A stretch of DNA of 32,000 nucleotides from Demequinaceae bacterium (lineage in GTDB: Bacteria > Actinomycetota > Actinomycetes > Actinomycetales > Demequinaceae). A program made the position numbers and the translations under genes. Positions 4,183-23,459 of the stretch are shown piece by piece. Position 1 is the stretch's first letter, and every line of letters starts with the position of its first letter. The stretch covers positions 60,001 through 92,000 of the forward strand of contig OZ252279.1 in the NCBI GenBank assembly GCA_965250005.1. Direction: 5' to 3'. The notes under the pieces were generated by a model. The model worked only from the letters and a program-made list of their open reading frames with translations, had not been told where the DNA came from and did not search any database.

Positions 4183-5333
4183 TAGGCCACCACGTGTGCT
4201 GTCAAAGTCTGCGCGAGCTTTCGGTAGCGTTCACCCACACGAGTCCACCGAGTGTGCTGTGCACCGAGAGTCCCCGCGCGGGCCATGCGTTCAGCGGTTC
4301 CCGGCCCCGTGAGAACCTCCCGTATTGCCCGGCTCATCGCGCTCGCGTCCCGATGGGGGACCACTATGCCCGCGCCAGATTCGAGCAGCTCGATCGCGTG
4401 TGGGAAGCCAGTCGCGACAACTGGTTTGCCGGCCGCGACGGCTTCCGCCAAGACTCCCGACGTCACCTGGTTGGTCGAGTCGTAGGGGAGGAGCACCACG
4501 GCTGCTCCGTTCACGGCGCGGGCGAGCGCCTCGCTATCCAAGTACGTGTCGTCGATATGGATGTGGCTGACCAGGCCGAGTGTGTGCACCATTTGGTGGA
4601 GGTGATGGCGGTAGGCGTCGCCGTCATTCGCGAGCACCTTGGGGTGGGTTTCTCCCAACACCCGGTAGATCGGCCGTGGCTCGATGTCGCCCAGGCTAGC
4701 CATGGCGAGGATGCCCCATTCGATCCCCTTGCCGGGACCGAGCAGGCCCCACGTCAGCACTACTGGCGCCGACGGCTCGTCGGTTGCTGCTGCGCGCGTG
4801 GTCTTCGTGCCGGACACCGCCGCCACGGTGGTAGCGCCGTGGGGAATGACGCGGACGTGGTGGGAGCCCACGCCGTAGAGGTCTGTCAGCAAGTGCCGGG
4901 CAGCGTTGGTCATCACCACGGTCGCCGACGCGAGACTCGTCAATTGCTCGAGAACTTCGCGTTGGTGCGCCGAAGGATCAGCTAGCACCGTGTGCATGGT
5001 GACGATGGCCGGCACGTCCAGACGCCGGATAACGTCAACGACCTCATCCCCGTCCGGGCCACCGTAGATTCCGTATTCGTGCTGTATCACTGCGACGTCG
5101 GCCGTGTTGAGGGCGGTGATCGCGTGGTCTCGGCTGCGTGCGTCGCCTCGGCGCATCGACGCGACGACCGGAAGGGTGGGGTCACCGGCCGTGCGCTCCT
5201 CGTCCTGCTCTACCAAGCGGACGATGAACGAGTGGTCCCGGGGGGTAGTCATGGACGTTGCGAGCGCGGCCGTGAAGGTCGCAATGCCGCATCGTGTTGG
5301 CGGAAATGTGCCAAGGAACCCGAATCGCGCCAT
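4182..5333 (-). CDS. Glycosyltransferase family 4 (GT-B, group 1)
   Basis: N-terminus MARFGFLGTFPPTRCGIATF and the C-terminal half (VVLLPYDSTNQVTSGVLAEAVAAGKPVVATGFPHAIELL) are typical of GT4. I place the start at ATG 5333 because GGGAGG (5345-5340, minus strand) sits 6 nt upstream. The ORF track begins at TTG 5348, inside that SD. Confidence 0.85.
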   Translation of the reverse strand: MARFGFLGTFPPTRCGIATFTAALATSMTTPRDHSFIVRLVEQDEERTAGDPTLPVVASMRRGDARSRDHAITALNTADVAVIQHEYGIYGGPDGDEVVDVIRRLDVPAIVTMHTVLADPSAHQREVLEQLTSLASATVVMTNAARHLLTDLYGVGSHHVRVIPHGATTVAAVSGTKTTRAAATDEPSAPVVLTWGLLGPGKGIEWGILAMASLGDIEPRPIYRVLGETHPKVLANDGDAYRHHLHQMVHTLGLVSHIHIDDTYLDSEALARAVNGAAVVLLPYDSTNQVTSGVLAEAVAAGKPVVATGFPHAIELLESGAGIVVPHRDASAMSRAIREVLTGPGTAERMARAGTLGAQHTRWTRVGERYRKLAQTLTAHVVA

Positions 5334-5444
5334 CGCAGTACCTCCCAATGCTGGGGAACGCCCCAGTGCACTTGGCCAGCGGGGAGAATCCCGCTCGCCA
5401 AGTCGCGCTCCGCGTGTGCAGCGCGATAGATGCGCTTCGCTTTC

Positions 5445-5493
5445 GAGTCTAGACTCCAGCCGCCGCCGGCGCGACCGGAACTACGACCGGAAC
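5445..5493. promoter_or_regulatory. Candidate operator region: perfect 12-bp palindrome plus a 12-bp-phased direct repeat
   Basis: GAGTCTAGACTC at 5445-5456. CGACCGGAAC at 5472-5481 and again at 5484-5493. All lie in the 192-nt gap between the MBL hydrolase stop (5526) and the GT4 start (5333). Confidence 0.3.
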
Positions 5494-5525
5494 CGGGGCC
5501 CCGAGTAGCGTGTGCCGCGCGGCAG

Positions 5526-6323
5526 CTAGACCGAGACCGTCTCTCCCAGAGGGGCAACAATTCGCGTCGCGGCGACGGGAGGCTGGGCGAACGCGCGGGC
5601 TATGTCCGGCTCCGACTCCTTGAAGTGGCTCCAGCCGTCTGAGTGAACCACAAGCGTCTTGGGAAGCCCAAGTGTCGCGACGGCCCGAGCCACCTGGATG
5701 GCCGTCATGCAAAACGGGATAGGGCCGGTGGCGCCAAAGCGCGGGTTGCCCGCGTGCATGATGGCGACGTTGACGGAGAAGCGCTCCGCCACCTGCCTGG
5801 TCGCCTTGGATGAGACGTTATCGCCGCTGACATACAGCGTCGGGTGGCCGGGCGCTTGAAGAACGAAGCCAGTGACTGGCCCCGTGATGAGCGCCACCGG
5901 TCCGTGCGCGTGGCGAGCAGGGGCAGCAGTGACGGTGACGGTGACCCCGCCAGGCGCGTCGAGCGTGGTGGTTTCCCATGTAGCGAGCCCTACCGAGCCG
6001 GGCAGGTGCTTGGCGGCCGAGGGATTGGTGACGACTTTGCCGGCGCCGTCGGCGATCAGGCTCTTGGCTAGGGCGCGGCCAGCCTTGTCGAAGTTGTCCG
6101 CATGGGTGTCGTGGGACACGAGCACCGCGTGGACGTCGCCTAGGGCGTCGGCGGCGATCGCGGTCTCGGTGGTTTTGCTCACCGGGAGCAGTCCGCTGAC
6201 TTTGTACTTGCTGCCAGCCGGATCGAACGCGGGATCGCTTACGATGCGCAGCCCGGCGTAGTCGACGACGACCGTGGGGCCACCCAGGTGGGTGAGGGCT
6301 ACCTGCAGTTTCTTTGAGGGCAT
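5526..6323 (-). CDS. MBL-fold metallo-hydrolase
   Basis: MPSKKLQVALTHLGGPTVVVDYAGLRIVSDPAF...VHAVLVSHDTHADNFD...VHSDGWSHF follows the beta-lactamase-fold pattern (a degenerate HxHxD region plus a late His). I chose ATG 6323 rather than the upstream 6392 start, whose extra 23 aa look non-coding. Confidence 0.7.
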   Translation of the reverse strand: MPSKKLQVALTHLGGPTVVVDYAGLRIVSDPAFDPAGSKYKVSGLLPVSKTTETAIAADALGDVHAVLVSHDTHADNFDKAGRALAKSLIADGAGKVVTNPSAAKHLPGSVGLATWETTTLDAPGGVTVTVTAAPARHAHGPVALITGPVTGFVLQAPGHPTLYVSGDNVSSKATRQVAERFSVNVAIMHAGNPRFGATGPIPFCMTAIQVARAVATLGLPKTLVVHSDGWSHFKESEPDIARAFAQPPVAATRIVAPLGETVSV

Positions 6324-6425
6324 GCGAAGGATTCTACTGGCACCGCTGCCGCCAGTGTGGGTGCCCCAATAAGATGTGGCACCGCTAAGCATGCGCCTTG
6401 CCCTCGCTGACGATAGCGTTGTTAT

Positions 6426-6830
6426 ATGGGACTTTTCAGCCGAAGTGGACGTGGCCGACGCTCTAAGGAATCAGCAAAGTTCGAGCGCTCGAGGCTCGAC
6501 GGGATCCGCTATAAGGAGATGGAGGTGGTGGCCGCTTTGCAGGGCATGGGCGCGGATATCCACGCCCCTCGGCACGTGATGTTCTTCCTGCACATGCCGA
6601 CTGAGGCCGCGAGTCAGGTGTGCGTGGCCAACCTTAGCGCGCGTGGGCATCAGGTGCGAACCATCGTGCCCGAGGGCAGGGTCAGGTACTGGACGTGCGT
6701 CGCGGAGACCCGCAACCGGGCGATCATTCCTGACTTCCTGCGCGACACCGTGGACTACTGCGAGGCGTTGGCGCTAGAGCATGGCGGCGAGTTCAACGGC
6801 TGGGAGGCGGGCCTGGCCGCTGATGAGTAG
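6426..6830 (+). CDS. RraB-like (regulator of ribonuclease activity B family) protein
   Basis: 134-aa ORF. HVMFFLHMPTEAAS...LSARGHQV...YWTCVAE...LALEHGGEFNGWEAG resembles the RraB/DUF1260 fold, with the terminal GGxYDGWE-like motif. Confidence 0.6.
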   Translation: MGLFSRSGRGRRSKESAKFERSRLDGIRYKEMEVVAALQGMGADIHAPRHVMFFLHMPTEAASQVCVANLSARGHQVRTIVPEGRVRYWTCVAETRNRAIIPDFLRDTVDYCEALALEHGGEFNGWEAGLAADE

Positions 6831-6881
6831 GCCGCCAGCCACGCGAACAGTTCGGCCTAGGTACTCACGATTGCGGCCTAG

Positions 6882-8309
6882 CTACGCACGGTTGCGAATC
6901 CCCGCCCACGAGACGGCCCCGGCTGCCACCAGCGCGACCGCCGTGACTACTGCAGCTCGGTGGAACCCGTCCAGATCCAGTTGCCCGCCAACGATGCTGC
7001 CCACGAGCGCGACCACCACCAGGCCAGCGACGCGTGACACGGCGTTGTTGATGGCCGATGCGATGCCGGATCGGGCCGTGTTGATCGCGCCTAGGATCGC
7101 CGACGTCAGTGGCGAAACCGTGAGCGCCATGCCTACGCCCACCAGCAGCACGCCGGGGAACACCTGGGTCCAGTAGTTGAAGTCCTCGGCCACGCTCAGC
7201 GTGAGCAGCACGCCCGCGGCGGCCACGATGGGCCCTACCGTCATGAAAATGCGCGGTCCGAAGCGTCTCGCCAACGCGCCCACCGGGGAGCTCAGCATGA
7301 TCAGCATGACGACGATCGGCAAAGTCGCGAGTCCGGCATCAACCGCGCTTAGGCCCGCGCCCTCCTGCAGGTATACGGCCATGACGAACGACACCAGTGA
7401 GAGCCCGCCGTATACGAGTGCGGTCGCCACGTTGCCCCAGCCAAAGTTGCGGATGCGGAATAGGCCTAGCGGCATCATCGGGTGTGCGGCGCGGGCTTGG
7501 TGGACAAGGAACGCGATGATCGCGGCCACGCCGATCGCACCGGGGATCCAGATGGTGGGGTCGCTCGCGCCGTGCGTTGGCAGCTCGATGAGCGCGTACA
7601 CGGCGCCGCCCAGGCCTACGGCGCCGAGTACGGCACCCAAGAAGTCGATGCGCGTATCGGCCAGGCGAGTGTCGCGCTGGGTGAGGCGCGGGAGCAGCCA
7701 GATCACGGCCGCGGCGGGAATCAGGTTGATCACGAACGCCCATCGCCAAGACGCATGTTCCACAAACAGTCCGCCCAGAATCGGGCCGAATACGAACGCG
7801 GCCGAGGTGATTGCGGTCCACGTGCCGATGGCCTTCGCCTGGGCGGCGCCGCGGAAACTCGACATGATCAGGGCGAGCGAGCTGGGAACTAGCAGGGCGC
7901 CCGCGGCGCCCTGGAGCAGCCGCGCCACGATCAGCAGTGGCGCCGACGGCGCGACCGCCACCGCGAGGCTGGCGAGCCCGAACGCGATGGCGCCGATGCG
8001 CAGCACCCGGATGCGCCCGTACACGTCGCTCACGGACCCCGCGACCAGGATGAGCGCGCCCAAGGTAATGAGGTACGCGTCCACCACCCATTGCTGCAGG
8101 GCGATGCCGCCGCCCAGCTCGTCGGCGATCGCCGGCAGCGTCACATTCACCACGGTGCCGTCGAGGAATGTGACGAACGAGGCCACGATCGCGATGATGA
8201 GGACGAGGCGCTGCTCGCGGGTGGGGGAGCGCTTTGTGGGCGGCTCGGTTGCGGGCTTCTCTTCCGGTCCGGACTTGGGCGCGGCGGATTCCGTGGGCGA
8301 GGGCATCAC
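6882..8309 (-). CDS. MFS transporter, DHA2 (EmrB/QacA-like, ~14 TMS) family
   Basis: 475-aa, very hydrophobic ORF. LDGTVVNVTLPAIADELGG...WVVDAYLITLGALILVAGSVSDVYGRIRVL is the classic DHA2 N-terminal signature. Confidence 0.9.
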   Translation of the reverse strand: MMPSPTESAAPKSGPEEKPATEPPTKRSPTREQRLVLIIAIVASFVTFLDGTVVNVTLPAIADELGGGIALQQWVVDAYLITLGALILVAGSVSDVYGRIRVLRIGAIAFGLASLAVAVAPSAPLLIVARLLQGAAGALLVPSSLALIMSSFRGAAQAKAIGTWTAITSAAFVFGPILGGLFVEHASWRWAFVINLIPAAAVIWLLPRLTQRDTRLADTRIDFLGAVLGAVGLGGAVYALIELPTHGASDPTIWIPGAIGVAAIIAFLVHQARAAHPMMPLGLFRIRNFGWGNVATALVYGGLSLVSFVMAVYLQEGAGLSAVDAGLATLPIVVMLIMLSSPVGALARRFGPRIFMTVGPIVAAAGVLLTLSVAEDFNYWTQVFPGVLLVGVGMALTVSPLTSAILGAINTARSGIASAINNAVSRVAGLVVVALVGSIVGGQLDLDGFHRAAVVTAVALVAAGAVSWAGIRNRA

Positions 8310-8580
8310 GTCAGGTTACGTCGGAAGTGAGGATCGGTAGTCCCGCTCATGGCCGTCTGGTTTCCACTGGGGCCTCGAATGGGAGCATGCAGAAAGGTGG
8401 AGGCGATGGGCTCTGCGGGACGCGATGCCTAGGACGAAAAACGGGGCGCGTTGGCCGGGGCGCGCGGTGCGGGGATGGGCCCTCTTTCGGGACGGCCACG
8501 CGGCCGTCGTCAGCGTGCACGGACAAGTCGGCTAGCGGGCACGGAACTCAGGGCGGCCCACCCAACGCTCGCGCTCCGCT

Positions 8581-9537
8581 ATGCGTCTACCTAGTATGAA
8601 CACTATGAACACTATGAACACAGGTATTGACACCGCCCCGCGCCGCACCCGCCGCGCCGCCGTTATCGCCTCACTAGTCGCCGTTGCGGGAGTGCTGGCA
8701 GGTTGCTCCGCGGGCAGCGGCGATTATGCAGACGCCAACTATGCAGACTTGGCAGGCGGCGCGGCCTACGCCGATGAGGCGGCCGCCGAGGTCGCCGACG
8801 TCAACCGTTCATCGACCGACAACCGCTCCGTGATCATCACGGGCACCATGTATATGACCGTCGAGGACCCGATCGTGGCAGCCGACCGCGCAGCGGGCAT
8901 CGTTCAGAACGCGGGCGGACGCATCGACGCACGCAGCGAGACCGCGCCCGATGAGCATTACGCCGGCTCGGCCTCGCTCACGCTGCGGATCCCCTCGGAC
9001 CACCTCGACGCGGTGGTCAACAGCCTGCGCAAGCTGGGCACGGTGGACCAGTTCAGCACCGACTCCTACGACGTCACGGTCGAGGTGACAGACCTCGAGG
9101 CCAAGATTTCGACGCTGCGCGCCTCGACCGAACGCATCGAGGCCCTGCTGCTGGAAGCCAAAGATATTTCCGACATCATCACGCTCGAAAACGAGTTGGA
9201 CGGCCGACAAGCGGAGCTCCAGAGTCTCGAGGCGCGGCAGCGAGGCCTCAACGACCAAGTGTCGATGTCCACGATCGGCCTTTCGCTCACTACCGAGCCG
9301 GTCGTGATCATCGACGACGCGCCTGAGACGTTCTGGGACGCCCTAGAGTCCGGCTGGGACTCGCTCGTGGCATTCCTCTCGGGTGCGCTGATCATTGTCG
9401 GGGTGCTACTGCCCTCGATCGCACTGATCGCACTCGTCACGGCCGCGGTGGTCGCCGCGCTCCGCGCCAAGAAGTCCAGTGTCGCTCGCCGAGCCGCCGC
9501 GTCGGCCCCCAAGCCCGCCACCAGCAAGGGCAAGTGA
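8581..9537 (+). CDS. DUF4349-domain lipoprotein
   Basis: Signal/lipobox VAGVLAGCSAG, then a coiled-coil core (DLEAKISTLRASTERIEALLLEAKDISDIITLENELDGRQAELQSLEARQRGL) and a C-terminal TM segment, which is the DUF4349 layout. The start is uncertain: four in-frame ATGs lie between 8581 and 8616. Confidence 0.7.
   Translation: MRLPSMNTMNTMNTGIDTAPRRTRRAAVIASLVAVAGVLAGCSAGSGDYADANYADLAGGAAYADEAAAEVADVNRSSTDNRSVIITGTMYMTVEDPIVAADRAAGIVQNAGGRIDARSETAPDEHYAGSASLTLRIPSDHLDAVVNSLRKLGTVDQFSTDSYDVTVEVTDLEAKISTLRASTERIEALLLEAKDISDIITLENELDGRQAELQSLEARQRGLNDQVSMSTIGLSLTTEPVVIIDDAPETFWDALESGWDSLVAFLSGALIIVGVLLPSIALIALVTAAVVAALRAKKSSVARRAAASAPKPATSKGK
8596..8622 (+). repeat. Three tandem copies of a 9-bp unit ATGAACAC(T/A), encoding (MNT)x3 at the DUF4349 N-terminus
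   Basis: Read directly: atgaacact (8596-8604), atgaacact (8605-8613), atgaacaca (8614-8622). In frame with ATG 8581. Confidence 0.95.
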
Positions 9538-12800: not shown

Positions 12801-12911
12801 GCGTCCGGGATAGGCGCCGTGCGCGCACGCCGGTCGTCGACGGCGGCAGCTGCGCTCGCGCGCTTACGCCCAGGCATCGCCCCACCGCGCGGCCTCGAAC
12901 AGCGCCTCAAC

Positions 12912-13076
12912 CTACCGGGGACTGTCGCCCACGGGCCGCTTGCGAAACCACTTCGGGGTGTTCCAGTTGGGGAGCAACGTGACGTCGTCGGGCATCTGCT
13001 TGTCGTTGACAGTCGAGATCAGGCTTCCGGTGAGGACGATCAAGCGTGAGCGCGCCGGGATCGGGGCGCTGGCCCC
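12912..13076 (-). other. Orphan gene 3'-end fragment, paralogous to 14942-15110
   Basis: The translation GASAPIPARSRLIVLTGSLISTVNDKQMPDDVTLLPNWNTPKWFRKRPVGDSPR* aligns with IGAPIPVRSCVVVLTWSRVPEINYEHMPDDVSVLHKRNTPRWFRKQP at 14942-15110. The 16-nt core TGACGTCGTCGGGCAT is identical at 12980-12995 and 15028-15043. Nothing homologous precedes it in frame. Confidence 0.55.
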
Positions 13077-13960
13077 TGGGTCCACGCTCGAGTGCTGGGA
13101 TCCCATGTGCCGGCTTCGACGGCCCCGCTCATCACGGGGTCCACGAACTCACGGGTGGACGTGACGGCGCTGTCGAAGTCCGCCGGGACGGAGCTTTCGT
13201 TTCCAAACCCGCGGTGCAACGAAGCCCAGTCGCTTCGCCACGAATCGACGGGCTCCAGGTACGAGGCGGGAACGAGCTTTCGCCGCAGTTGCTCCAACGC
13301 GAGGGCCTCTGCCAGGTGAGCCGCGTTCACCCGTGCTGCCGCGGCGATCGCGCACAGGTCGTAGAGGTCACGGGGCCGGCTGCTCTGACCGCTTCCGTAG
13401 GAGGCCATGACTGCACAGACCTTGTCGGCGATGTGGTCCTCGATAGGGAAGACGGCGACGCCGACCGGCGACGCGCCTGCGGCCTCGAATGGCGGTGGCT
13501 TGGCGACGGTCGTCACGTGCCCCGTCGGCTCCCTCGTCACCACCACGTCGATCTTGAGCTTCGCCATGAACGTGGCAGAGATCGTCACGTCAAACTTGAC
13601 CGTGAGCCCCACGTATCCGCCGGTCTCGCTCGCTCGAAGGACGCGCGGCTCACCGCTGGTCGTGAACGTGAGGCCGTCGCCAAGGTCGAACGCGGCGGCC
13701 TGATCGAGCGCCTCCGCGGCTTCGCGCGAGGAACGGGCATCGCCACGAACGTCGAGGTCGTGGGTTTTGCGTGTCGTGATGCCGCGCGCGGCAAGGGCCT
13801 GGCCACCCTTGAGCATAAACATCGCAGAATGGGTCCGGGCGACGCGTTGGAGGAGCTGATGCACAGCGGCGTCGAGTAGTGCGCGGGTACCGTCGACGCC
13901 CTGTGCCTTCGCCTGGTTGAGGATCTCCTGGCGATCGAGCCGTACTGGCGCGCTACTCAT
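13040..13960 (-). CDS. abiEii: AbiEii/AbiGii-family nucleotidyltransferase toxin (DUF1814), type IV TA
   Basis: 306-aa ORF. FMLKGGQALAARG...RKTHDLDV (NTase G-G...DxD region) and RPRDLYDL are family hallmarks. Its ATG (13960-13958) overlaps the end of the upstream antitoxin gene by 8 nt. Confidence 0.85.
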   Translation of the reverse strand: MSSAPVRLDRQEILNQAKAQGVDGTRALLDAAVHQLLQRVARTHSAMFMLKGGQALAARGITTRKTHDLDVRGDARSSREAAEALDQAAAFDLGDGLTFTTSGEPRVLRASETGGYVGLTVKFDVTISATFMAKLKIDVVVTREPTGHVTTVAKPPPFEAAGASPVGVAVFPIEDHIADKVCAVMASYGSGQSSRPRDLYDLCAIAAAARVNAAHLAEALALEQLRRKLVPASYLEPVDSWRSDWASLHRGFGNESSVPADFDSAVTSTREFVDPVMSGAVEAGTWDPSTRAWTQGPAPRSRRAHA

Positions 13961-14909
13961 CGTGTGTGTCCTGCGTCAGTTCTGAGATGCTCGCCACGTC
14001 CTGCAGGGTCAGCCACGGAATGGTCGCGAGTATGTTGGCGCGCTCCGCGTACGCGGCGCTGATGGGCTCAATTATTCGAGACACCTGCTCGATAATCATC
14101 GCGTGCTTGCGGACCTCGTCGACGGCCGCGGCGCCGAGTGCGGACGTAACCTCAGCGAGCATGGGTGCCGTGATGCGGCGGTATTCCTCGAGCGCCGATG
14201 CGGTGATGGAGTGGGCCACCTCCACCATCGCGTCGGCGCCAATCGCGGACTCCGCGAGCCGTGCCGCGAGGGCTTTGGTGTCGATGCCGTTGTAGGCAAG
14301 CATGCGATCTACGGCGCGCTCGCGTTCAGTCAGGGACCTACCGGGCAGGCGCGCTACTACCTTGTCCCGCGTCGTCTTGCGCGCGTCGATGGCGTCCCCC
14401 AGCACATCGGCGACGTGCGACTCGTCTGGCTCGGTTCGGGCGAGGTCGGCGATGGTGCGTTCCGGCGTCGTGACGAGCATTCCGGCCTCGACGCGCACGT
14501 CTGATACTCCGAGGGGCCGGTGCGAGAGCTTGACGCCGTCGCGTGTCGATTGCTTGCGGTAGTTCGCGGTGTACCTATTGTCATCCGCATACAGGTTGCC
14601 GATGCCGTGCACTTGAGCGGCGCTGCGATGCGAGACGGCAATCATGTGCTGCTTGTCGGTGAGGCGTTCTGCAGCGGTGCGGCCAGGGTCGAGGGCTAGC
14701 CAGTTGGCGCGAAGGAGTTCGTGCTCGTCACGCGGCGCACCGCCCATTCGGTAAACGGCGTGGGTGATGCGGTCGAGCGTGCCGGCGTCCTCGAGGCGGG
14801 CGAGCGTGAGCCGGGGCACGCCAACGAGCGCGGCCTGTCGTGATGTCACGAGGCCGCGCTGCGATTCGGCGATGCCCGAGAGTGCGACAGCCGCTTCCTG
14901 CGCTTTCAT
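13953..14909 (-). CDS. abiEi: AbiEi-family antitoxin/transcriptional regulator (N-terminal wHTH, AbiEi_4-like)
   Basis: 318-aa ORF. GLVTSRQAALVGVPRLTLARLEDAGTLDRITHAVYRMGG plus ...VTTPERTIADLAR is the AbiEi pattern. It sits directly upstream of, and overlaps, abiEii. Confidence 0.85.
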   Translation of the reverse strand: MKAQEAAVALSGIAESQRGLVTSRQAALVGVPRLTLARLEDAGTLDRITHAVYRMGGAPRDEHELLRANWLALDPGRTAAERLTDKQHMIAVSHRSAAQVHGIGNLYADDNRYTANYRKQSTRDGVKLSHRPLGVSDVRVEAGMLVTTPERTIADLARTEPDESHVADVLGDAIDARKTTRDKVVARLPGRSLTERERAVDRMLAYNGIDTKALAARLAESAIGADAMVEVAHSITASALEEYRRITAPMLAEVTSALGAAAVDEVRKHAMIIEQVSRIIEPISAAYAERANILATIPWLTLQDVASISELTQDTHDE

Positions 14910-14941
14910 ACTGTTATTGTTGCATTAATTGCGATACTTTT

Positions 14942-15184
14942 CTAGATCAGAGCGTCCACTTGCTCGGCGTTGTAGATGGCCGGCTGCTTGCGGAACCACC
15001 GCGGAGTGTTCCGCTTGTGCAACACGCTGACGTCGTCGGGCATGTGCTCGTAGTTGATCTCCGGCACGCGCGACCAGGTGAGCACCACCACGCACGAGCG
15101 CACCGGGATGGGCGCCCCGATCTTCGCGCTCAGCAGCGTGGATGCCCGCGCGGCCTCGTGCCGCGCGTTGCGCCGCAGCGCGCG
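14942..15184 (-). pseudogene. In-frame continuation (80 codons) of the 15185..15901 frame beyond its TAG. Either the cut-off C-terminal domain of an inactivated gene or a replacement 3' end.
   Basis: My own translation immediately after TAG (15187-15185), in the same frame: RALRRNARHEAARASTLLSAKIGAPIPVRSCVVVLTWSRVPEINYEHMPDDVSVLHKRNTPRWFRKQPAIYNAEQVDALI*, with the stop at 14944-14942. It is homologous to the fragment at 12912-13076. Confidence 0.5.
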
Positions 15185-15901
15185 CTACGCAAACGCCAGC
15201 CGCGTCCCACCGATCAAGGCGCCGACCAGCAGGAGCCAAGCGGCCCATATCGATGGGGTGCGCGTAGTGATGTCAACCACGACTGCCGCGAAGCGCTGTG
15301 CGCGAGCTTCCTGTGCTTGGAGTCGCTCGCGGCGTCTCTTGATTTTGACCGCCTCGCGGGGGCGCTTCTTCGGTGGGACCGGTACCCAGTTCACCCAAGC
15401 GAGTTCCGCCGCCTTGCGGCCATCCTCGCCGATCTCTCGGACGCGATTCGCTGTCGCGGACGCGCCTCCAACGAGTGCGACCACGCAAGCTACAAAGAAA
15501 GCCCACCAGAGCGTGTAGCCTACATTCGTGGAGACGTCGTCGCTTTCGAGCGAGCCGTCCGTAAACCCTGCGAGCACTGTCGCCGCGATAATCGCGAACG
15601 GCCAAATGAAGAGACTTGCGGCGCGGGCGAGGCTGGGTTCGAAAGCGTTGCGCCCACCAGCGGTGGCATGAAAAGGCTGGCGCCACGTTGGCAGAACGAC
15701 GGCAAGCGCGACGACTCCAAGAATGACTGCGGCGACGTGGCCAGCGTCCGACGCCCACGGCCAACCCGTGACGCGGAAGGCGGCTCCGGCGATCAGCGCT
15801 GGGAGCCAGCCCCGCACGTAACCTGCGCTTGATCGATCGATCAGTCGGATTAGGTTGTCTGGATCAAGATGCCACATGCGTGCTGGTGCCTTGTTGGACA
15901 T
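15185..15901 (-). CDS. Hypothetical multi-pass membrane protein, possibly truncated by a nonsense codon
   Basis: 238-aa ORF. ATG 15901 is preceded by GAGAGGAA (minus strand). It has 4-5 hydrophobic segments and a basic linker (PPKKRPREAVKIKRRRERLQAQEARAQR). It ends at a TAG, after which the frame stays open for 80 more codons. Confidence 0.55.
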   Translation of the reverse strand: MSNKAPARMWHLDPDNLIRLIDRSSAGYVRGWLPALIAGAAFRVTGWPWASDAGHVAAVILGVVALAVVLPTWRQPFHATAGGRNAFEPSLARAASLFIWPFAIIAATVLAGFTDGSLESDDVSTNVGYTLWWAFFVACVVALVGGASATANRVREIGEDGRKAAELAWVNWVPVPPKKRPREAVKIKRRRERLQAQEARAQRFAAVVVDITTRTPSIWAAWLLLVGALIGGTRLAFA

Positions 15902-16001
15902 CGGTTCCTCTCAGGATCACGTGGTGGCCGCCGCGCCGCGCGAGTTGCGGGCGCGACCACTAGTATCCAAGAAGGGCCTGACAATCGCGCGGGGAGACTC
16001 A

Positions 16002-19000
16002 ATGACGGCAGTCACAACGCTCGACGACGTCCTCGACGACCTGCGCGCCAACGCCACCGGCATCCGCGACAAGGGCACAGCGTTCGAGAACCTCACCCTC
16101 GAGTTCTTCCGCACCAACCCCCTCCACCAGTCCGAGTTCGCCACGGTCCAGACCTTCGCCGACTGGGCGCCCCAGGGTGGCAAGCGCGACACCGGTATCG
16201 ACCTCGTCGCGACTCGCCACGACGGCGGGATCACCGCCATCCAGTGCAAGTTCTACGACGAGGGACACACGGTCCAGAAGTCGGACATCGACTCGTTCTT
16301 CACTGCGTCCGGCAAGAAGCCGTTCACAGAACGCATCATTGTCAGCACCACCGACAAGTGGAGCGACAACGCCGAGGCGGCGCTCGAGAACCAGCATCTC
16401 GACACCACGCGCTTCGGCCTGGACGACATGCGCACCAGCCCCGTCGAATGGGCGATTCTCAAGAACCTCACCGAGGCGCCCAAGCTCAAGAAGCGGAAGC
16501 CCAAGCAGCTGCGCCCGCACCAGCGCGCCGCGATCGACGACGTCGTCGCAGGCTTCGCGACCTCGGCTCGCGGCAAGCTCATTATGGCGTGCGGCACGGG
16601 CAAGACGTTCACGTCCCTCAAACTTGCCGAGGAGATGGTCAAGCCCGGCGGAAGCGTGCTGTTCCTCGTCCCGTCGATCTCGCTCCTTTCGCAGTCCCTT
16701 AAGGAGTGGGGAGCGGAGCGCGAGGCGGAGATGCGCTTCTTCGCCGTCTGCTCCGACACGCACGTGGGCCGCACGCGCAAGCAGAAGGAACTCCACGAGG
16801 ACATCAGCGCGCATGACCTCGAGATCCCCGCGACCACCAAGTCCGAAAAGCTCGTCGACGGCGCCAGCGCTACCTCAAAAGGCGCCATCACGGTCGTCTT
16901 CGCCACGTACCAATCCATCGACGTGGTCAGCGCCGCCCAGCGCGCAGGCCTTCCCGACTTCGACCTCATCATCTGCGACGAAGCGCACCGCACCACCGGA
17001 GTCACGCTCACGGGGGAGGGCGACAAGGAGTCCGCGTTCGTCAAGGTTCACGACAACGCGAACGTCGCCGCCAAGCGTCGCGTCTACATGACGGCGACGC
17101 CGCGCGTGTACGGCGAGGACGCGAAGAAGAAGGCCGTCGAAGGCGCCGCTGTGCTCGCGTCGATGGACGACGAGGAGGTGTTCGGCCCGGAGTTTCACCG
17201 CCTCGGCTTCGGGGAGGCGGTAGACGCCGGCCTGCTCGCGGACTACAAGGTGCTGATCCTTAGCGTCGTCGAGGACTACGTGGCGCACGCGCTCCAGACC
17301 GTGCTGGCGAGTGACGGAAACGAAATCGACCTCACCAACGCAGCCAAACTGGTCGGCTGCTGGAATGCGTTGGCCAAGCGCGGCGACGTCGAGCAGTACG
17401 GCGATGACCCGGGCGCGATGCGCCGCGCAGTGGCGTTCTCGCAGACCATTAAGGCGTCCAAAGGTGTGACTGCCGCGTTCGAGGAGCTGAGCGACGCGCT
17501 CGTGGGTGCGGCGGCGGACGGGACGCGCCTGAGCGTCGAGGCGAACCACGTGGACGGCACCCAGAACGCCCTATACCGAAACGAGCAACTTGCCTGGCTC
17601 AAGGCGGAGGCGCCGGACGATTCGACGTGCAGGATTCTCTCAAACGCGCGCTGTCTGAGCGAAGGAGTAGACGTCCCGGCACTCGACGCGGTGCTGTTCC
17701 TGAACCCGCGGAACTCGATCGTGGACGTAGTCCAGAGCGTGGGCCGTGTGATGCGCAAGTCGGAAGGGAAGAAGTTCGGCTACGTCATCATCCCGGTCGC
17801 GGTGCCCTCGGGCCTTGAGCCGCACGAGGCGCTCGACAAGACGGACCGCTACAAGGTCGTCTGGGAGGTTCTGCGCGCGCTGCGGTCTCACGATGAACGG
17901 CTCGAGGCGACTGTCAACACACTCGATCCGACCAAGCCAAACGATCGCATCATCCCGGTCAACATTGGCGCCGGGGGCTCAGGGAGCGATCGGAACGATG
18001 ACACGCCGGATGGCACCCCCGTCGAGACTCAGGGCTCACTTGACCTTCGGGACTCGCCGGTTTGGCGCGAAGCTATCTTCGCCCGCCTGGTCAAGAAGGT
18101 TGGCCAGCGGATGTATTGGGACCGCTGGGGCAAGGAAGTCGCTGACGCCGTCGCCCGGACTACTTCGCGCATCAACGCGATCCTCGCGCGTGACAAGGCA
18201 GCCCAGCGCGAGTTCGACACGTTTCTCGAGGGCATCCGCCGCAACCTAAATGACAGCATCAGCCGCGACGATGCGGTGAGTATGCTTGCCCAGCACCTCG
18301 TGACGGAGCCCGTGTTCAACGCAGTGTTCCGCGAGTTCGAGTTTGTCGAACACAACACCGTGGCGCGGACGATGCAGAACATGCTTGACGTCCTCAACCA
18401 AAAGAACCTCGAGACCGAGGGCAGCGAGCTCGACGAGTTCTACAAGGCGGTGAGAACACGGCTCGACGGAGTCGATGACGCCGGCCGCATGCAGTTTGTC
18501 AACGAGCTCTACGAGAAGTTCTTCAAGCGCGCCTTCCCCACGGTCGCGGGTCAGCTCGGAATCGTATACACGCCCGTCGAAATTGTCGACTTCATCATTC
18601 GCAGCGTGGAGCACGTGCTTAACGAGGAGTTCGACGCCTCGCTGAGCGACAAGGGTGTGCACGTGCTCGATCCGTTCACGGGGACGGGCACGTTCATCGT
18701 GCGGCTGCTCCAGAGCGGCCTGATCAAACCCGAGGACCTGCTTTACAAGTACACGCACGAGCTCCACTGCAACGAGATCCTGCTGCTCGCGTACTACATC
18801 GCGGTGGTGAACGTCGAGGCGACGTTCCACTCGCTGCGCGGCGGCGAGTACGTGCCGTTCGAGGGGGCGGTACTCGCAGACACGTTCCAGATGACGGAGG
18901 ACGGCGACACGCTCGACGGCGACGTGTTCACCGCGAACAGCGAGCGAATGAAGCAGCAGCGGGAACTCGACATACGCGTGATCGTCGGCAATCCGCCGTA

Positions 19001-20798
19001 CTCAGTGGGCCAGGGCAGCCAGAATGACGGCGCGGCAAATCTCAAGTACCCGACGCTCGACAGGGCGATCGAGACGACCTACGCCGCACAATCCTCGGCG
19101 ACCAACAAGAACTCGCTCTACGACTCCTACGTCCGCGCGATCCGCTGGGCATCCGACCGTATCAAGGACGACGGGGTGATCGGCTTTGTCACGAACGGCG
19201 GCTTCATCGACGGCAACACTGCCGACGGAATCCGCAAGTCGCTTGCAGGAGAGTTCAGCGAGATTTACGTGTTCAATCTTCGAGGTAATGCCCGGACCGC
19301 CGGAGTGCAGCGCCAGAAAGAGAAGGGAAACGTCTTCGCAGAGGGAGGGCGCACTACCATCGCCGTGACGTTCCTTGTCAAGCGTTCAGCAACGAGGAGC
19401 ACCGCACGGATCAAATACCGAGACATCGGTGACTACCTGACGACGGATCAAAAGCTTGAGATCATTAAATCCAGCGAGGTTGACTCGATCGAGTGGGAGG
19501 TGATCGAACCAAATGGCTCGGGCGACTGGCTCAATCAGCGCAACCCGGAGTTCGATGCATTCACCCCGATTGGCTCCAAGGATGACCCCAACCGCGCTAT
19601 CTTCGCTGTGCACTCGGGTGGACTTAAGACCAATCGGGACGCTTGGGTCTACAACTCGTCTCGGGCTGTCGTCGAGGCAAACGTGCGCGGAATGGTCGGC
19701 TTCTACAATTCCCACGTGGACAAGTTCGCTGCTCAGAGCGGCGATCCGGGCGCGAAGACCGTGGAGCGCCTCATTGACTTGGATCCCACCCATTTCAGTT
19801 GGAACCGCGCTGACAAGACGCATCTCGCTCGAGGCCGGAAGTACGTCGTGCGCGACGACGCGTTCCGGGTCGGCGGGTACCGGCCGTTTCACAAGCAGCG
19901 AGTCTGCTTCGACCGAAATCTCAATGACATGGTCTACCGCTTGCCGAGTCTGTTCCCGCCTGGCTCCGAAAACTTAGGCTTCTACCTCGACGGAACTCAC
20001 GCCGAGAACCACGGCGTCGTGCTTGCCATCAGCGAAGTTCCGTGCCTCGACTTGTTTGGAAGGGGCGGTCAATTCTTTCCCCGCTACTCGTACGCGGAGA
20101 AACCGGCAGACGACCTCTTCGCCGCCGCTTCGGATGAGACCTACACCCGCGTCGACAACATCACCGACGAGGCGCTCGCGGACTACCGGGCCAAGTACGG
20201 CCCCGAGGTCTCGAAGGACGACATCTTCTACTACGTGTACGGCCTGCTGCACTCGCCGGACTACCGCACCAAGTACGCTGCCGACCTCAAGCGCATGCTC
20301 CCGCGCATCCCGATGGTCGCGCCGGCCGACGACTTCCGCGCCTTCGCCGACGCGGGCCGCAAGCTCGCCGACCTGCACATCGGCTACGAGACTGTCGAGC
20401 CGTGGCCGCTGCACGTCGCTGGCGAGCCGGCGTCGTCCGTGAAGGGCGACGCGCTGTACGACTGGTACCGCGTGGAGAAGATGCGCTTCCCAGGCAAGGG
20501 CAAAGAGAAGGACCGATCGACGGTGATCTACAACTCGCACATCACGGTGAGCGGCATCCCTGACGAGGCGTACGAGTACAAGCTGGGCTCGCGCTCGGGT
20601 GTTGAGTGGGTGCTGGACCGGTATCAGGTGAAGATCGACAAGGCCTCGCAGATCAAGAACGACCCGAACGATTGGTCGCGCGAGGTAGAGGACCCGCCCT
20701 ACATCCTGGATCTGTTGGGGCGGGTAGTGCGGGTGAGCGTGGAAACTATAGGGATTGTGAGCACACTTCCGCCGTTGAGGGCTGCGGGTGGCAAATGA
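16002..20798 (+). CDS. Type ISP restriction-modification enzyme: a single polypeptide with Mrr-like nuclease, SF2 translocase ATPase, gamma-class N6-adenine methyltransferase and a target-recognition/C-terminal domain
   Basis: 1598 aa from ATG 16002 (GGGGAGA at 15991-15997). Nuclease: GIDLVA (D at 16200-16202) ...ITAIQCKFY (QCK at 16242-16250). ATPase: Walker A MACGTGKT (16584-16607), DEAH in ICDEAHRT (16977-16988), and motif VI QSVGRVMRK. MTase: motif I VLDPFTGTGTF (18669-18695) and motif IV NPPY (18990-19001). A variable region follows, then the conserved tail DDIFYYVYGLLHSPDYRTKYAADLKRMLPRIP. The order and size match the characterised LlaGI/LlaBIII architecture. Confidence 0.9.
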   Translation: MTAVTTLDDVLDDLRANATGIRDKGTAFENLTLEFFRTNPLHQSEFATVQTFADWAPQGGKRDTGIDLVATRHDGGITAIQCKFYDEGHTVQKSDIDSFFTASGKKPFTERIIVSTTDKWSDNAEAALENQHLDTTRFGLDDMRTSPVEWAILKNLTEAPKLKKRKPKQLRPHQRAAIDDVVAGFATSARGKLIMACGTGKTFTSLKLAEEMVKPGGSVLFLVPSISLLSQSLKEWGAEREAEMRFFAVCSDTHVGRTRKQKELHEDISAHDLEIPATTKSEKLVDGASATSKGAITVVFATYQSIDVVSAAQRAGLPDFDLIICDEAHRTTGVTLTGEGDKESAFVKVHDNANVAAKRRVYMTATPRVYGEDAKKKAVEGAAVLASMDDEEVFGPEFHRLGFGEAVDAGLLADYKVLILSVVEDYVAHALQTVLASDGNEIDLTNAAKLVGCWNALAKRGDVEQYGDDPGAMRRAVAFSQTIKASKGVTAAFEELSDALVGAAADGTRLSVEANHVDGTQNALYRNEQLAWLKAEAPDDSTCRILSNARCLSEGVDVPALDAVLFLNPRNSIVDVVQSVGRVMRKSEGKKFGYVIIPVAVPSGLEPHEALDKTDRYKVVWEVLRALRSHDERLEATVNTLDPTKPNDRIIPVNIGAGGSGSDRNDDTPDGTPVETQGSLDLRDSPVWREAIFARLVKKVGQRMYWDRWGKEVADAVARTTSRINAILARDKAAQREFDTFLEGIRRNLNDSISRDDAVSMLAQHLVTEPVFNAVFREFEFVEHNTVARTMQNMLDVLNQKNLETEGSELDEFYKAVRTRLDGVDDAGRMQFVNELYEKFFKRAFPTVAGQLGIVYTPVEIVDFIIRSVEHVLNEEFDASLSDKGVHVLDPFTGTGTFIVRLLQSGLIKPEDLLYKYTHELHCNEILLLAYYIAVVNVEATFHSLRGGEYVPFEGAVLADTFQMTEDGDTLDGDVFTANSERMKQQRELDIRVIVGNPPYSVGQGSQNDGAANLKYPTLDRAIETTYAAQSSATNKNSLYDSYVRAIRWASDRIKDDGVIGFVTNGGFIDGNTADGIRKSLAGEFSEIYVFNLRGNARTAGVQRQKEKGNVFAEGGRTTIAVTFLVKRSATRSTARIKYRDIGDYLTTDQKLEIIKSSEVDSIEWEVIEPNGSGDWLNQRNPEFDAFTPIGSKDDPNRAIFAVHSGGLKTNRDAWVYNSSRAVVEANVRGMVGFYNSHVDKFAAQSGDPGAKTVERLIDLDPTHFSWNRADKTHLARGRKYVVRDDAFRVGGYRPFHKQRVCFDRNLNDMVYRLPSLFPPGSENLGFYLDGTHAENHGVVLAISEVPCLDLFGRGGQFFPRYSYAEKPADDLFAAASDETYTRVDNITDEALADYRAKYGPEVSKDDIFYYVYGLLHSPDYRTKYAADLKRMLPRIPMVAPADDFRAFADAGRKLADLHIGYETVEPWPLHVAGEPASSVKGDALYDWYRVEKMRFPGKGKEKDRSTVIYNSHITVSGIPDEAYEYKLGSRSGVEWVLDRYQVKIDKASQIKNDPNDWSREVEDPPYILDLLGRVVRVSVETIGIVSTLPPLRAAGGK

Positions 20799-21946
20799 GA
20801 CTGACACGGCTAGGACTTGATCGCGACCTCGATACTGTCGTCGTGCTTGGTGCAGGCGCCACAGCAGGGGCGCGCGTCTCGACAACTCCGCCGCTAGGTC
20901 GGGCGTTTGTAGACACCGACTTCTTTGATCAATTGACCTACTTTTCGGCGAATGCAGCGTCGGACAGCTTCCGCGCTGACGCGTCAGACTTCCTCGGTTT
21001 CCTGAGGAGTCGGTACGGCAACGTCCCGCACGGACTCGAGGAAATCTTCGCAGAGTTGGACGTGACGAACCAATTCAATGAGGCAACTCGCGCGCGCAAG
21101 CAAGGCAGACCCCCGCGGGAGTTTGATCGCCGTGCGGAGCAGTTGAAGCGGCTCATCGTACTGGCCCTGCGGGAGAGCCTGGGGGCGTCTGAAGCAAACC
21201 TCCCGGTCTGTGATCTGCACCTGGCGGTGCTGCGCACGCTCGGCGTCAAAGATGCGGTCGTCTCATTCAACTACGACCTGCTCGCCGACCGAGCGATGTC
21301 CTCGGGCCTTGCCTCGAAGTTCAAGCCCGGTGTCAGCTATGGATTTGAGCCGAGCGCCGTTTCTGGAGAGTGGGCGCCCCCGCCGAAGCTCGGGAGTCCA
21401 TTTCGGAACCACACCAAACTGTATAAGCCTCACGGGTCGTTGCATTGGCGGGACACTGGCGAAGCCGTCGAGATCGCGGCGAGTGAAGTATCCATCAATG
21501 CGGACGACGTTGCGATCGTTCCGCCGCAGTTGATCAAGAGATTCGACGCGGAGCCTTATGAGTCAATCTGGCGAGGAGCACGAAAGGCAATCGCAGGAGC
21601 GCGCGCAATCATCCTCGCTGGGTATTCACTCCCCTCTTCGGATATTGCAACGACCGCCGCCCTTCGACTGGAAGCGGAAGAACTCCAACTTGTTTGCATC
21701 GCTAACCCCGACGACGCTGTTGTGCGACGGACGTTGGATGTGTTGAGAACCGCAATTACAGACAAGACGATAGTCGTGAGGCTCCGCACCTTCTCAGAGC
21801 TCGCACTTCGCTTCGGTGTACAAAGTGATCGGGCGCTCGCAGAGGAGCAACAAGACTTCTCATGGATGGAAAATGTCATCGATCAACGGGTGTACGACCT
21901 CGTGCCTGAGGCGTACGACCGGGCGGTGAACCGGTTGTTCGAATAG
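20795..21946 (+). CDS. SIR2-like (SIR2_2 family) protein, a putative NAD+-consuming effector translationally coupled to the Type ISP gene
   Basis: 383 aa from ATG 20795, which overlaps the RM stop as ATGA (20795-20798). The SIR2_2 hallmarks occur in order: VVVLGAGATAG (GAG at 20849-20857), VVSFNYDLLADR (Asn at 21269-21271), LYKPHGSLHW (HGS at 21431-21439) and IILAGYSLPSSD. The upstream part of track ORF 20606.. is just the out-of-frame RM 3' end. Confidence 0.8.
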   Translation: MRLTRLGLDRDLDTVVVLGAGATAGARVSTTPPLGRAFVDTDFFDQLTYFSANAASDSFRADASDFLGFLRSRYGNVPHGLEEIFAELDVTNQFNEATRARKQGRPPREFDRRAEQLKRLIVLALRESLGASEANLPVCDLHLAVLRTLGVKDAVVSFNYDLLADRAMSSGLASKFKPGVSYGFEPSAVSGEWAPPPKLGSPFRNHTKLYKPHGSLHWRDTGEAVEIAASEVSINADDVAIVPPQLIKRFDAEPYESIWRGARKAIAGARAIILAGYSLPSSDIATTAALRLEAEELQLVCIANPDDAVVRRTLDVLRTAITDKTIVVRLRTFSELALRFGVQSDRALAEEQQDFSWMENVIDQRVYDLVPEAYDRAVNRLFE

Positions 21947-21954
21947 CAGCGCGT

Positions 21955-22671
21955 CAGCGGATGGAGGGTGAGTCGTCAAGTGCCTTGGCGCCAACAATTA
22001 GGAATCTCGTACTCCCGAGCCTTGCGCCCCTTGCCCGAGTTCGAACCCTCGTCTTGCGCGATCACCGCTGCGACTCCCTTCTCGACGCCCGGGTGCACCA
22101 CGAGACCACGCGCCTCCGCAAGCGCCCGCAGCTCCGCTTTGCGTGCCTCTGGGAAGCCCGTGAGCACGATCAGGTCGCCGGGCTGAGCTCCAGCCCGTCG
22201 TGGCCACTGCGACCTGATCCTCAGCCTCGAGGTCCGCGAGGTCCAGCAGGCCAGCGAACTGAATCACGAGGGCGCGCTCGCCGCGGGTTAGCTGGTCGCC
22301 CGCGCAGACCGCGTCCACCACGCCCAGCATGTAGTGGCGGTTGAGGCGCGCCACGTCGTCGGCGCTTAGCGAGAGTTGCTCTGCGAGCCCGTCCAGCGCG
22401 CGGGTACCGATATCTTGCGGTCCAGGAGTACCCGGTCGAGCAGCTCCAGGTACTCGTCGGCGCCCTCGAGGCCCACGACGCATGCGGCCGTAGCGTCGAT
22501 GCCGTGTATGTGCTGGGCGCCGAGGTCGCGTTGCGGGTTCACGAGCGTGCCGTAGGTGGCCTCGCGCTCGCCGTTCGCGTCGAGCAGGACCACGCCGATC
22601 TCGCACGTGGGGTCTGTGCCGTTGTAGGCGAAGCCGGTAGTCTCGAGGTCGATGACTGCGAAGCCGGACAT
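21955..22671 (-). pseudogene. Decayed DEDDh exonuclease (DnaQ/epsilon-like) plus BRCT-domain gene
   Basis: Three frames are needed to read it. (a) 22671->~22409: MSGFAVIDLETTGF (Exo I) ...IHGID, then straight into ...EYLELLDRVLLDRKIS; the Exo II and Exo III motifs are absent. (b) ~22411->~22187: TRALDGLAEQLSLSADDVARLNRHYMLGVVDAVCAGDQLTRGERALVIQFAGLLDL. (c) ~22200->21976: AQPGDLIVLTGFPEARKAELRALAEARGLVVHPGVEKGVAAVIAQDEGSNSGKGRKAREYEIP (BRCT-like). A further shift near 21985 restores IVGAKALDDSPSIR*, with the stop at 21957-21955. Confidence 0.75.
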
Positions 22672-22769
22672 GTTCGCAACGTAGATCCGGCTCGCTGAAG
22701 CCGCAAACGGAACTGCACTTTTGTCGTTCTCACCAAGCGAAGTGCGCCTTGCGCGCGTAGCGTTGCGGA

Positions 22770-23459
22770 ATGGCGACTTCGCGCAGTGACGAGTTCAAAG
22801 TTGGTCGCGTCCAAGTGCCGCTCGCAACGGCGCTCAAGTGGCTAGCGGGCTATTTGAACCAGGAGCTCAACGAGACCGCAAAGAAGCCATTTGCGTACCC
22901 CGCGTACGACCACTACGAACCGGGCGCGGTTGACGCGAACGAGATTTCAGACGGAGACCTGCTCGCTCCCATGCTTCTCAACGTCAAGGTGTCGGTGAGA
23001 TCCCTCTACGCGTTGCAGGCGGTGAGATCCAAGATGGAGGCGGCTCTAGAGAAGGTCAAGCCGGAGACGGAATTGGCGCACGCCCGTGATGATGAAGTCC
23101 GTGCGCTCGTCGGACCGCTCTATGCAGTTCTCGACCCCGAGATGTCACGCCCGTCTGGAGTCAAGGCAACGACGCTGTCGAAAATCTATCATCGAAAGCG
23201 CCCGAAATTCGCCCTCCTTCACGACCGGTGGGTACGCGCTTGCTACGTCGGCTCGGGCGCGCCGGTGCGGGACGACCCGGATCGCACTTGGGCGGAGTAC
23301 ATGATTTCGCTCTCGCTGGAGGTCCGCAACGATCTTGTAGCGAACGCAGATGTGCTGGGCGATCTGCGGGAGCACCCTGGGATTGGCGACCGCGTGAGCG
23401 ACCTGAGGATTCTCGACATCTTGGCCTGGAGTTCGCGCGGAGGTGCGCGCATCAGGTGA
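22770..23459 (+). CDS. DUF6308-like hypothetical protein
   Basis: 229-aa ORF. AYPAYDHYEPG...ISDGDLLAPMLLNVKVS... and GVKATTLSKIYHRKRPKFALLHDRWV match my recollection of the actinobacterial DUF6308 family. The assignment is from memory only. Confidence 0.5.
   Translation: MATSRSDEFKVGRVQVPLATALKWLAGYLNQELNETAKKPFAYPAYDHYEPGAVDANEISDGDLLAPMLLNVKVSVRSLYALQAVRSKMEAALEKVKPETELAHARDDEVRALVGPLYAVLDPEMSRPSGVKATTLSKIYHRKRPKFALLHDRWVRACYVGSGAPVRDDPDRTWAEYMISLSLEVRNDLVANADVLGDLREHPGIGDRVSDLRILDILAWSSRGGARIR

Follow-up and report, generated by a model that had tools for sequence, protein, structure and literature searches.

A Type ISP restriction-modification gene overlapping a stand-alone SIR2 gene in a Demequinaceae bacterium: probably an undescribed restriction-plus-cell-suicide unit

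In a Demequinaceae bacterium, the gene for a Type ISP restriction-modification (RM) enzyme overlaps the gene for a stand-alone SIR2 protein. The two are probably not neighbours by chance but parts of an undescribed restriction-plus-cell-suicide unit. The pair was found in a window of 32,000 nucleotides (nt) (assembly GCA_965250005.1, contig OZ252279.1, positions 60,001-92,000 of the forward strand), where the RM gene occupies positions 16002-20798 and the SIR2 gene positions 20795-21946, both on the + strand; coordinates follow the numbering of the window, with position 1 as its first letter. We put the probability that the SIR2 protein is functionally coupled to the RM enzyme, either as a guard or as an effector activated by its partner, at roughly 0.5. 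The combination is undescribed yet recurrent, and the concept of a restriction-linked abortive effector is already known.

Restriction enzymes are the commonest phage defence, and phages routinely disarm them. To our knowledge, few back-ups tied to restriction are understood, namely only PrrC, PARIS, Ronin and EcoR22I. If the reading is correct, a SIR2 enzyme that hydrolyses nicotinamide adenine dinucleotide (NAD+) and is tied to restriction motors would extend this list by a widespread class of effector. It would also provide Type ISP enzymes with an accessory function for the first time, and would offer a simple two-gene model for how a DNA-translocating enzyme signals failed restriction to a suicide enzyme.

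The two genes and their junction

Judged by its domains and alignments, the first gene encodes an intact, full-length enzyme of the LlaBIII/LlaGI type, a single polypeptide of 1598 amino acids (aa) that is typical of the Type ISP family. The start codon ATG at 16002 lies inside a longer open reading frame (ORF) on the + strand (15855-20798), and agrees both with the LlaBIII alignment, in which query residue 5 corresponds to LlaBIII residue 13, and with a full-length PADLOC model that covers residues 5-1597. This model, REase_MTase_IIG, matches the full length of the protein with 2088 bits, and a phmmer search of the PDB gave 1214 bits for LlaBIII (4xqk, residues 5-1592 of the ISP protein) and 1160 bits for LlaGI (5ffj). 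All the Pfam domains of the family are present in the expected order: an Mrr-type PD-(D/E)xK nuclease (aa 38-154, 16113-16463; Mrr_cat_2, 4.8e-41), a superfamily 2 (SF2) helicase-like ATPase motor (aa 169-586, 16506-17759; ResIII, 2e-24, and Helicase_C, 2e-7), the Type ISP coupler (aa 705-827, 18114-18482; ISP_coupler, 9.8e-42), a gamma-class N6-adenine methyltransferase (aa 833-1082, 18498-19247; N6_Mtase and Eco57I), and the C-terminal target-recognition domain (aa 1199-1571, 19596-20714; Type_ISP_C, 1.1e-101, over the full profile 1-342). These five domain classes, together with the alignment to LlaBIII and LlaGI, bear out the original prediction that the RM gene encodes a Type ISP enzyme. 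The enzyme is apparently catalytically active, with IDLVA...IQCK of the nuclease, GTGKT (Walker A) and DEAH of the motor, and DPFTGTGTF and GNPPYS of the methyltransferase all readable in the translation. LlaGI and LlaBIII have the same order of nuclease, motor, coupler, methyltransferase and target-recognition domain, and Type ISP enzymes such as these function without accessory proteins. However, the two prototypes are described as self-sufficient single genes, whereas the ISP gene of the window and those of at least three other loci have a SIR2 gene translationally coupled to the 3' end.

The second gene encodes, by its fold and motifs, a defence-type SIR2 protein of 383 aa with intact catalytic residues. 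The Pfam SIR2_2 match is borderline (24.8 bits against a cut-off of 24.5), and PADLOC SIR2 models match at about 1e-12 (PDLC04087, 1.1e-12). The AlphaFold2 (AF2) model, built on 17 homologues, has a predicted local distance difference test (pLDDT) value of 90 and a predicted template modelling (pTM) score of 0.86. When this model was compared with the PDB by Foldseek, the best matches were the SIR2 proteins of SIR2-HerA (8uae, 8wld and 8sxx; E-values down to 5e-11, TM score about 0.5), followed by ThsA and the SIR2-STAND protein Avs5, and only then by CobB and the sirtuins (E-values 1e-4 to 1e-3). A profile search of PDB sequences recovered the same SIR2-HerA proteins. Almost every homologue whose sequence includes the N-terminus has the Gly-rich NAD-binding loop GAGAT (aa 19-23, 20849-20863) in the form GAGA[TS]. 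The catalytic Asn159 in SFNYD (21269-21271) and His213 in KPHGS (21431-21433) are invariant in the 17 homologues and are exactly the Asn and His that had been singled out in the original prediction, whose assignment of the ORF as SIR2_2-like is thus supported by the Pfam, PADLOC and structural matches as well as by the motifs. We therefore place the protein in the defence-NADase branch of the SIR2 superfamily and predict that it hydrolyses NAD+. Neither Pfam nor the AF2 model revealed a second domain, and a short helical tail (residues 340-383) is restricted to the closest relatives.

At the junction, GGCAAATGAGACTG, the SIR2 start codon ATG (20795-20797) and the RM stop codon TGA (20796-20798) share an ATGA overlap of 4 nt (20795-20798), as direct reading confirmed. 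A GGGTGG stretch immediately 5' of the SIR2 ATG is a putative ribosome-binding site. A 4-nt overlap by itself is frequent in operons. The junction nevertheless goes beyond chance because its equivalents recur in homologous loci from other samples, as an ATGA overlap in L009, a TAATG overlap in L170 and a 4-nt gap in L004. Thus, the gene arrangement supports the earlier suggestion that the two genes are arranged for co-transcription and translational coupling.

Conservation of the pair

The close SIR2 family is small, and a word-seeded search of 5.8 billion proteins returned only 22 SIR2 matches. We inspected the six closest SIR2 clusters, the window included. Four of them sit 0-4 nt 3' of a Type ISP gene: that of the window, P0003/L009 (SIR2 57% identical to that of the window, ATGA overlap), P0005/L004 (41% identical, 4 nt after the ISP gene), and P0006/L170 (36% identical, TAATG overlap). 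The fifth, P0004/L002 (54% identical), lies by an ISP remnant, and the sixth, P0002/L001 (59% identical), is found upstream of a methyltransferase and an 871-aa GHKL (HATPase_c_3) ATPase. In a neighbour-joining tree, the window, the ISP-associated clusters and P0002/L001 formed one clade; P0006/L170 was found later and is not in the tree. Furthermore, nucleotide similarity between the window and L009 continues across the ISP/SIR2 junction. Since ISP-SIR2 pairs recur in other, unrelated samples, the adjacency is not unique to this genome, and the linkage of SIR2 relatives to Type ISP genes, which had been proposed as a check, proved to be conserved.

A conserved third gene was also considered and rejected, as tblastn and blastn comparisons of the window flanks with L001, L002, L004, L009 and L010 revealed similarity only across ISP and SIR2. 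Therefore, the unit consists of two genes.

The ISP remnant mentioned above belongs to an arrangement whose order is reversed relative to the window. In L002 (3655-6963), and also in L003, the SIR2 gene comes before a 157-aa remnant of the ISP C-terminus (4-nt overlap; 77% identity to aa 1456-1596 of the window ISP), which is followed by DarT-Macro (DarTG). Further ISP fragments upstream of SIR2 were searched for in L002 and L001, and none was found.

The wider SIR2 family

An exhaustive profile search (E-value of 1e-30 or below, clusters at 50% identity) gave a wider SIR2 family of 241 clusters, all of them stand-alone proteins of about 330-440 aa without a sensor domain. A scan of 185,579 species genomes added 80 further SIR2 loci with 23-33% identity, nearly all from metagenome-assembled genomes. 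No SIR2 relatives were found in IMG/VR phage contigs or in PLSDB plasmids. The family is confined to lineages that are little studied and for the most part uncultivated, a possible reason for its having escaped notice.

For the analysis of neighbours, ORFs were called locally and classed by phmmer panels together with Pfam and PADLOC, and start codons were refined for the junctions. An ATP-dependent restriction gene is the immediate same-strand neighbour of SIR2 in 19 of the 93 distinct loci and lies within 7 kb in about 28; these partner counts are approximate, with the greedy ORF caller having erred on some neighbours in high-GC loci (e.g. L002), and are lower bounds because many contigs are short. 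The restriction partners are scattered over the SIR2 tree. At least 12 loci have SIR2 either overlapping the restriction gene before it or separated from it by no more than 4 nt.

The partners belong to several types of restriction system. In Type III contexts, SIR2 follows Res (L008, GTGA), follows Mod (L055, 4 nt or less), precedes Mod-Res (L029), or follows Res-Mod-UvrD (L043). In Type I contexts, TGATG junctions join SIR2 to an HsdS-like gene in L060 and to an HsdR-like gene in L032, Type I genes lie within 7 kb of SIR2 in L027, L044, L074 and L075, and in L049 the order is hsdM-hsdS-SIR2-two GmrSD-like genes-hsdR, with an ATGA overlap onto hsdS. In the Type I operons of L020 and L026, a Hypoth_Ymh/PD-Lambda-3_B-like (HEPN-like) gene lies directly 5' of SIR2 with a 1-nt overlap. 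An Mrr-helicase context is present in L010, where SIR2 follows a gene for a 1273-aa protein (4019-7840) after 160 nt.

Eight loci (L024, L031, L045, L053, L058, L061, L062 and L064) contain Druantia/DISARM-like sets, with the order SNF2-PLD (about 1100 aa), Eco57I/MmeI-type methyltransferase (1200-1760 aa), SIR2, and DruE-type DEAD-MZB helicase (about 1800 aa). Within these sets, the junction between the large methyltransferase and SIR2, before DruE, is 4 nt or less in L031, L053, L058, L061 and L064. A plain DISARM-like label for the SNF2-PLD/methyltransferase/DEAD-MZB sets was rejected because the DEAD-MZB protein matches DruE at 1e-101. With its combination of DISARM-like and Druantia-like genes, such a set could be a system variant that is undescribed in its own right.

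Two further findings, which the original prediction did not include, make the ISP-SIR2 unit one case of a broader pattern: the same SIR2 family is embedded in operons of Type I, of Type III and of the Druantia/DISARM-like kind, and ISP genes carry alternative effectors in the position of SIR2 (see below).

Some of these loci have further peculiarities. The 1273-aa protein of L010 combines an Mrr nuclease with an ISP-type helicase and is 36% identical to the N-terminal half of the window ISP, and nine helicase-associated (HA) repeats replace the methyltransferase and the target-recognition domain. The Type I operons of L049 (4253-15754), L020 (1689-12519) and L026 each hold several nested defence genes plus SIR2. 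In L005, two divergent SIR2 paralogues (6431-7525 on the - strand and 8001-9014 on the + strand) lie 0.5 kb apart in an island with a DruE-like helicase, a SNIPE/T5orf172 nuclease and a Bil-like (JAB/ThiF) cluster. At L055, L057 and L064 the SIR2 homologue is split into two ORFs, by a frameshift or pseudogene formation or by an assembly error.

Genes downstream of Type ISP enzymes

The ISP genes were also approached from their own side. A metagenome scan with an alignment of ISP C-termini gave 80 ISP-type loci. The overlapped position 3' of the ISP gene is also used by other genes. In L092 and L133, an unannotated 241-aa protein is encoded in the same overlapped position (GTGA). Two single loci are also of note. 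In L094 (1776-7492), the end of a complete Type ISP gene for 1615 aa overlaps, as TGATG, the gene for a 290-aa TIR protein (PF10137, 7e-38; PADLOC PDC-S35, 1.7e-70). In L167 (1830-9547), the Type ISP gene is likewise complete and shares an ATGA with the 963-aa ORF that follows; this ORF has apparent C-terminal transmembrane helices and no Pfam or PADLOC match, and it may encode a membrane effector.

Abortive-infection systems classically use SIR2, TIR and membrane proteins as effectors. The gene arrangements hint at an effector slot 3' of ISP genes. A more general proposal, which we consider tentative and rather doubtful, is that ATP-dependent restriction motors (ISP, Type I, Type III and Druantia/DISARM-like) have a swappable 3' slot for SIR2, TIR or membrane effectors, with the restriction enzyme sensing infection or anti-restriction and licensing the suicide effector. 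If true, these would be integrated restriction and abortive-infection systems with modular effectors, analogous to the effector swapping of CBASS or Avs.

Comparison with known systems

No report linking SIR2 to Type ISP, Type I or Type III systems was found in a full-text literature search, whose coverage of subscription journals was incomplete, so that an earlier mention is possible, and a 2025 review of RM biology does not mention SIR2. At the protein level, the models of PADLOC 2.0 match the RM and SIR2 genes separately only. In this respect, the statement made from the sequence at the outset, that no characterised system pairing a Type ISP enzyme with SIR2 was known, is supported.

Among the known SIR2 systems, SIR2-HerA is the most similar, as it likewise pairs a bare SIR2 protein of about 380 aa with a nucleic-acid-dependent ATPase, which activates the NADase (PMC11514289); by analogy, the ISP enzyme might activate SIR2 here. 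However, the two SIR2 proteins share only about 15% sequence identity, no HerA domain is found in the neighbouring ORFs of the window, and the partner is an SF2-helicase restriction enzyme whose gene comes first, in reversed order. Neither a ThsB nor a pAgo partner was found among the window ORFs checked. DSR1/DSR2, ThsA, SIR2-APAZ/pAgo and Avs5 share with the window SIR2 the catalytic core and, as predicted, the logic of NAD+ depletion, but their sensors are a large C-terminal domain, SLOG, APAZ with pAgo, and STAND, respectively, none of which is present in the window SIR2. DSR1/DSR2 have about 1000 aa, with SIR2 at the N-terminus and a large C-terminal sensor behind it, in contrast to the 383 aa of the window protein. 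Unlike in Thoeris, the window SIR2 has no SLOG or other second domain, and the scanned neighbours include no TIR gene. The PDC-S35 TIR protein of L094 occupies the same overlapped slot after an ISP gene and also has an NAD+-directed domain, but it has a different fold and is a single-gene candidate.

Among restriction-linked effectors, PrrC of the Type IC system EcoprrI is encoded inside the restriction operon and is latent until a phage inhibitor acts (PMC12707154). An effector within or coupled to a restriction operon is also what we found here, with the ATGA overlap in the window and with homologues in Type I, Type III and Druantia/DISARM-like operons, and the SIR2 gene of L049 likewise lies between hsdS and hsdR. 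However, PrrC is an anticodon nuclease whose dependence on the restriction enzyme is proven, whereas we infer that of SIR2. In Ronin, EcoR22I and PARIS, restriction-type proteins or guards trigger death upon exposure to anti-restriction proteins (10.1101/2023.04.06.535777), but the effectors are a 61-aa membrane peptide, Res itself and AriB, respectively, and neither SIR2 nor a Type ISP enzyme is involved.

Proposed mechanism and alternative explanations

In the mechanism that we propose, the ISP enzyme would methylate host DNA and would translocate along and cut unmodified invading DNA, and SIR2 would be made from the same transcript through translational coupling. SIR2 would be an NAD+-hydrolysing abortive-infection effector that is silent without infection. 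SIR2 would be switched on once the ATP-dependent restriction motor is engaged or put out of action by a phage, be it through an anti-restriction protein or through stalled or futile translocation; NAD+ would then be depleted, and the growth of the infected cell would stop. The pair would then be a guard-type second layer, as PrrC is with EcoprrI, using a SIR2 protein activated by an ATPase partner, as in SIR2-HerA. Both elements have precedents, since the SIR2 protein of SIR2-HerA is allosterically activated on binding its ATPase partner (PMC11514289), and guards of restriction systems, such as PrrC, PARIS, Ronin and EcoR22I, are an established idea (10.1101/2023.04.06.535777; PMC12707154). 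The NADase activity of SIR2, the defence role of the pair and, above all, the dependence of SIR2 on the RM enzyme are what we infer.

In favour of functional coupling, SIR2 genes are repeatedly joined to the last gene of restriction systems that contain a motor, and other ISP genes have a TIR or a membrane protein, likewise typical classes of abortive-infection effector, in the position of SIR2. Moreover, the members of the SIR2 family are bare and have no sensor domain, so the trigger must be external. Alternatively, SIR2 may be an autonomous single-gene defence that senses a phage cue by itself or acts via its own oligomerisation, and that is nested at the 3' end of restriction operons for constitutive expression and co-mobility. 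This is a serious alternative, to which we assign a considerable but minor share of the probability.

Several observations weigh against functional coupling, and a number of them favour an autonomous SIR2. About two thirds of the SIR2 loci have no recognisable restriction neighbour, and the other neighbours are mixed (Shedu, GmrSD, AAA_21, integrases, transposases, asparaginyl-tRNA synthetase (AsnRS), a thiamine pyrophosphate (TPP) enzyme and housekeeping genes). Defence genes that are evidently autonomous occur in the same positions of restriction operons too, namely the two GmrSD-like genes of L049 and the PD-Lambda-3_B/Hypoth_Ymh genes of L020 and L026; in L094 the place after the ISP gene is taken by PDC-S35 TIR, a single-gene candidate. 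Because the partner genes differ and are non-homologous (ISP, Res, Mod, HsdS, HsdR and the large methyltransferase), a single conserved interface is hard to picture. Nor do the two proteins diverge together: the C-termini of the ISP enzymes are 81-86% identical, whereas their SIR2 proteins are only 36-57% identical, and the ISP enzyme of L091 is equally close (82% over the last 160 aa) yet has no SIR2. This uncoupling of ISP and SIR2 identities suggests cassette exchange rather than co-evolution. Finally, SIR2 was found 3' of the ISP gene in only 1 of about 70 ISP-type loci sampled (L090, whose sequence is the same as that of L004). With SIR2 so rare among ISP loci, it must be regarded as an occasional add-on, consistent with the self-sufficiency of ISP enzymes.

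On the other hand, an autonomous SIR2 is difficult to reconcile with a bare domain that lacks the sensor modules of DSR1/DSR2, ThsA and Avs5, and its closest solved relatives need an ATPase partner. Close junctions with the last restriction gene, of no more than 4 nt, recur in four ISP pairs and in at least ten other operons, which goes beyond simple co-location in an island, and the ISP-linked clade retains its linkage down to 36% SIR2 identity. Functional coupling of SIR2 to the ISP enzyme is our preferred reading.

Alternatively, SIR2 might act on the restriction system itself, as an NAD+-dependent deacylase or ADP-ribosyltransferase that tunes the RM enzyme or protects the host during establishment. 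SIR2 folds do include deacylases, as the matches to CobB and sirtuins illustrate, and translational coupling would fix the stoichiometry with the RM enzyme. However, in both fold and PADLOC comparisons defence NADases match clearly better than CobB and the sirtuins do, the AF2 model shows neither a zinc ribbon nor a substrate-binding module of the kind typical of deacylases, the family occurs also without any restriction gene, and ISP enzymes need no accessory protein, all of which makes this role improbable. A recent defence-island accident with no selected relationship, and with a gene that is possibly decaying, would fit the GC-distinct island with AbiE upstream (described below), the ISP remnant of L002 and the split SIR2 genes of L055, L057 and L064, but it is largely refuted by four independent ISP-SIR2 pairs with a conserved junction, by the invariant catalytic residues and by the intactness of both ORFs.

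Genomic surroundings

The pair sits within a small island. The guanine-plus-cytosine (GC) content at 18-22 kb is 59-63%, as compared with 65-69% in the flanks, and the window left of about 11.7 kb is occupied by metabolic genes of the ordinary kind. When 14800-22900 was scanned for promoters and terminators, the only candidates were one promoter-like site and three terminator-like sites; all four lie on the - strand and do not exceed the expectation from shuffled sequences.

Upstream of the ISP gene, on the opposite strand, lies an AbiEi/AbiEii toxin-antitoxin pair (flanked region 13040-14909), which is bracketed by an imperfect direct repeat of 116 nt (12894-13009 and 14942-15057; 71% identity, spacing 2048 nt). 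In - strand translation, both copies resemble the C-terminus of a NERD-domain protein that adjoins the ISP-SIR2 pair of L004. This looks like a gene end that was duplicated or split when the AbiE cassette was inserted.

On the other side, a 202-aa ORF (21998-22606, - strand) converges on SIR2 and has a partial match to PADLOC PDC-S48 (2.9e-9, model positions 250-335 of 411), so it may be a piece of another defence gene; it overlaps a 127-aa ORF on the + strand (21961-22344), and the two are competing calls. Shortly 3' of SIR2, a gene on the + strand (22770-23459) encodes a DUF6308 protein (5.6e-37) with no PADLOC match.

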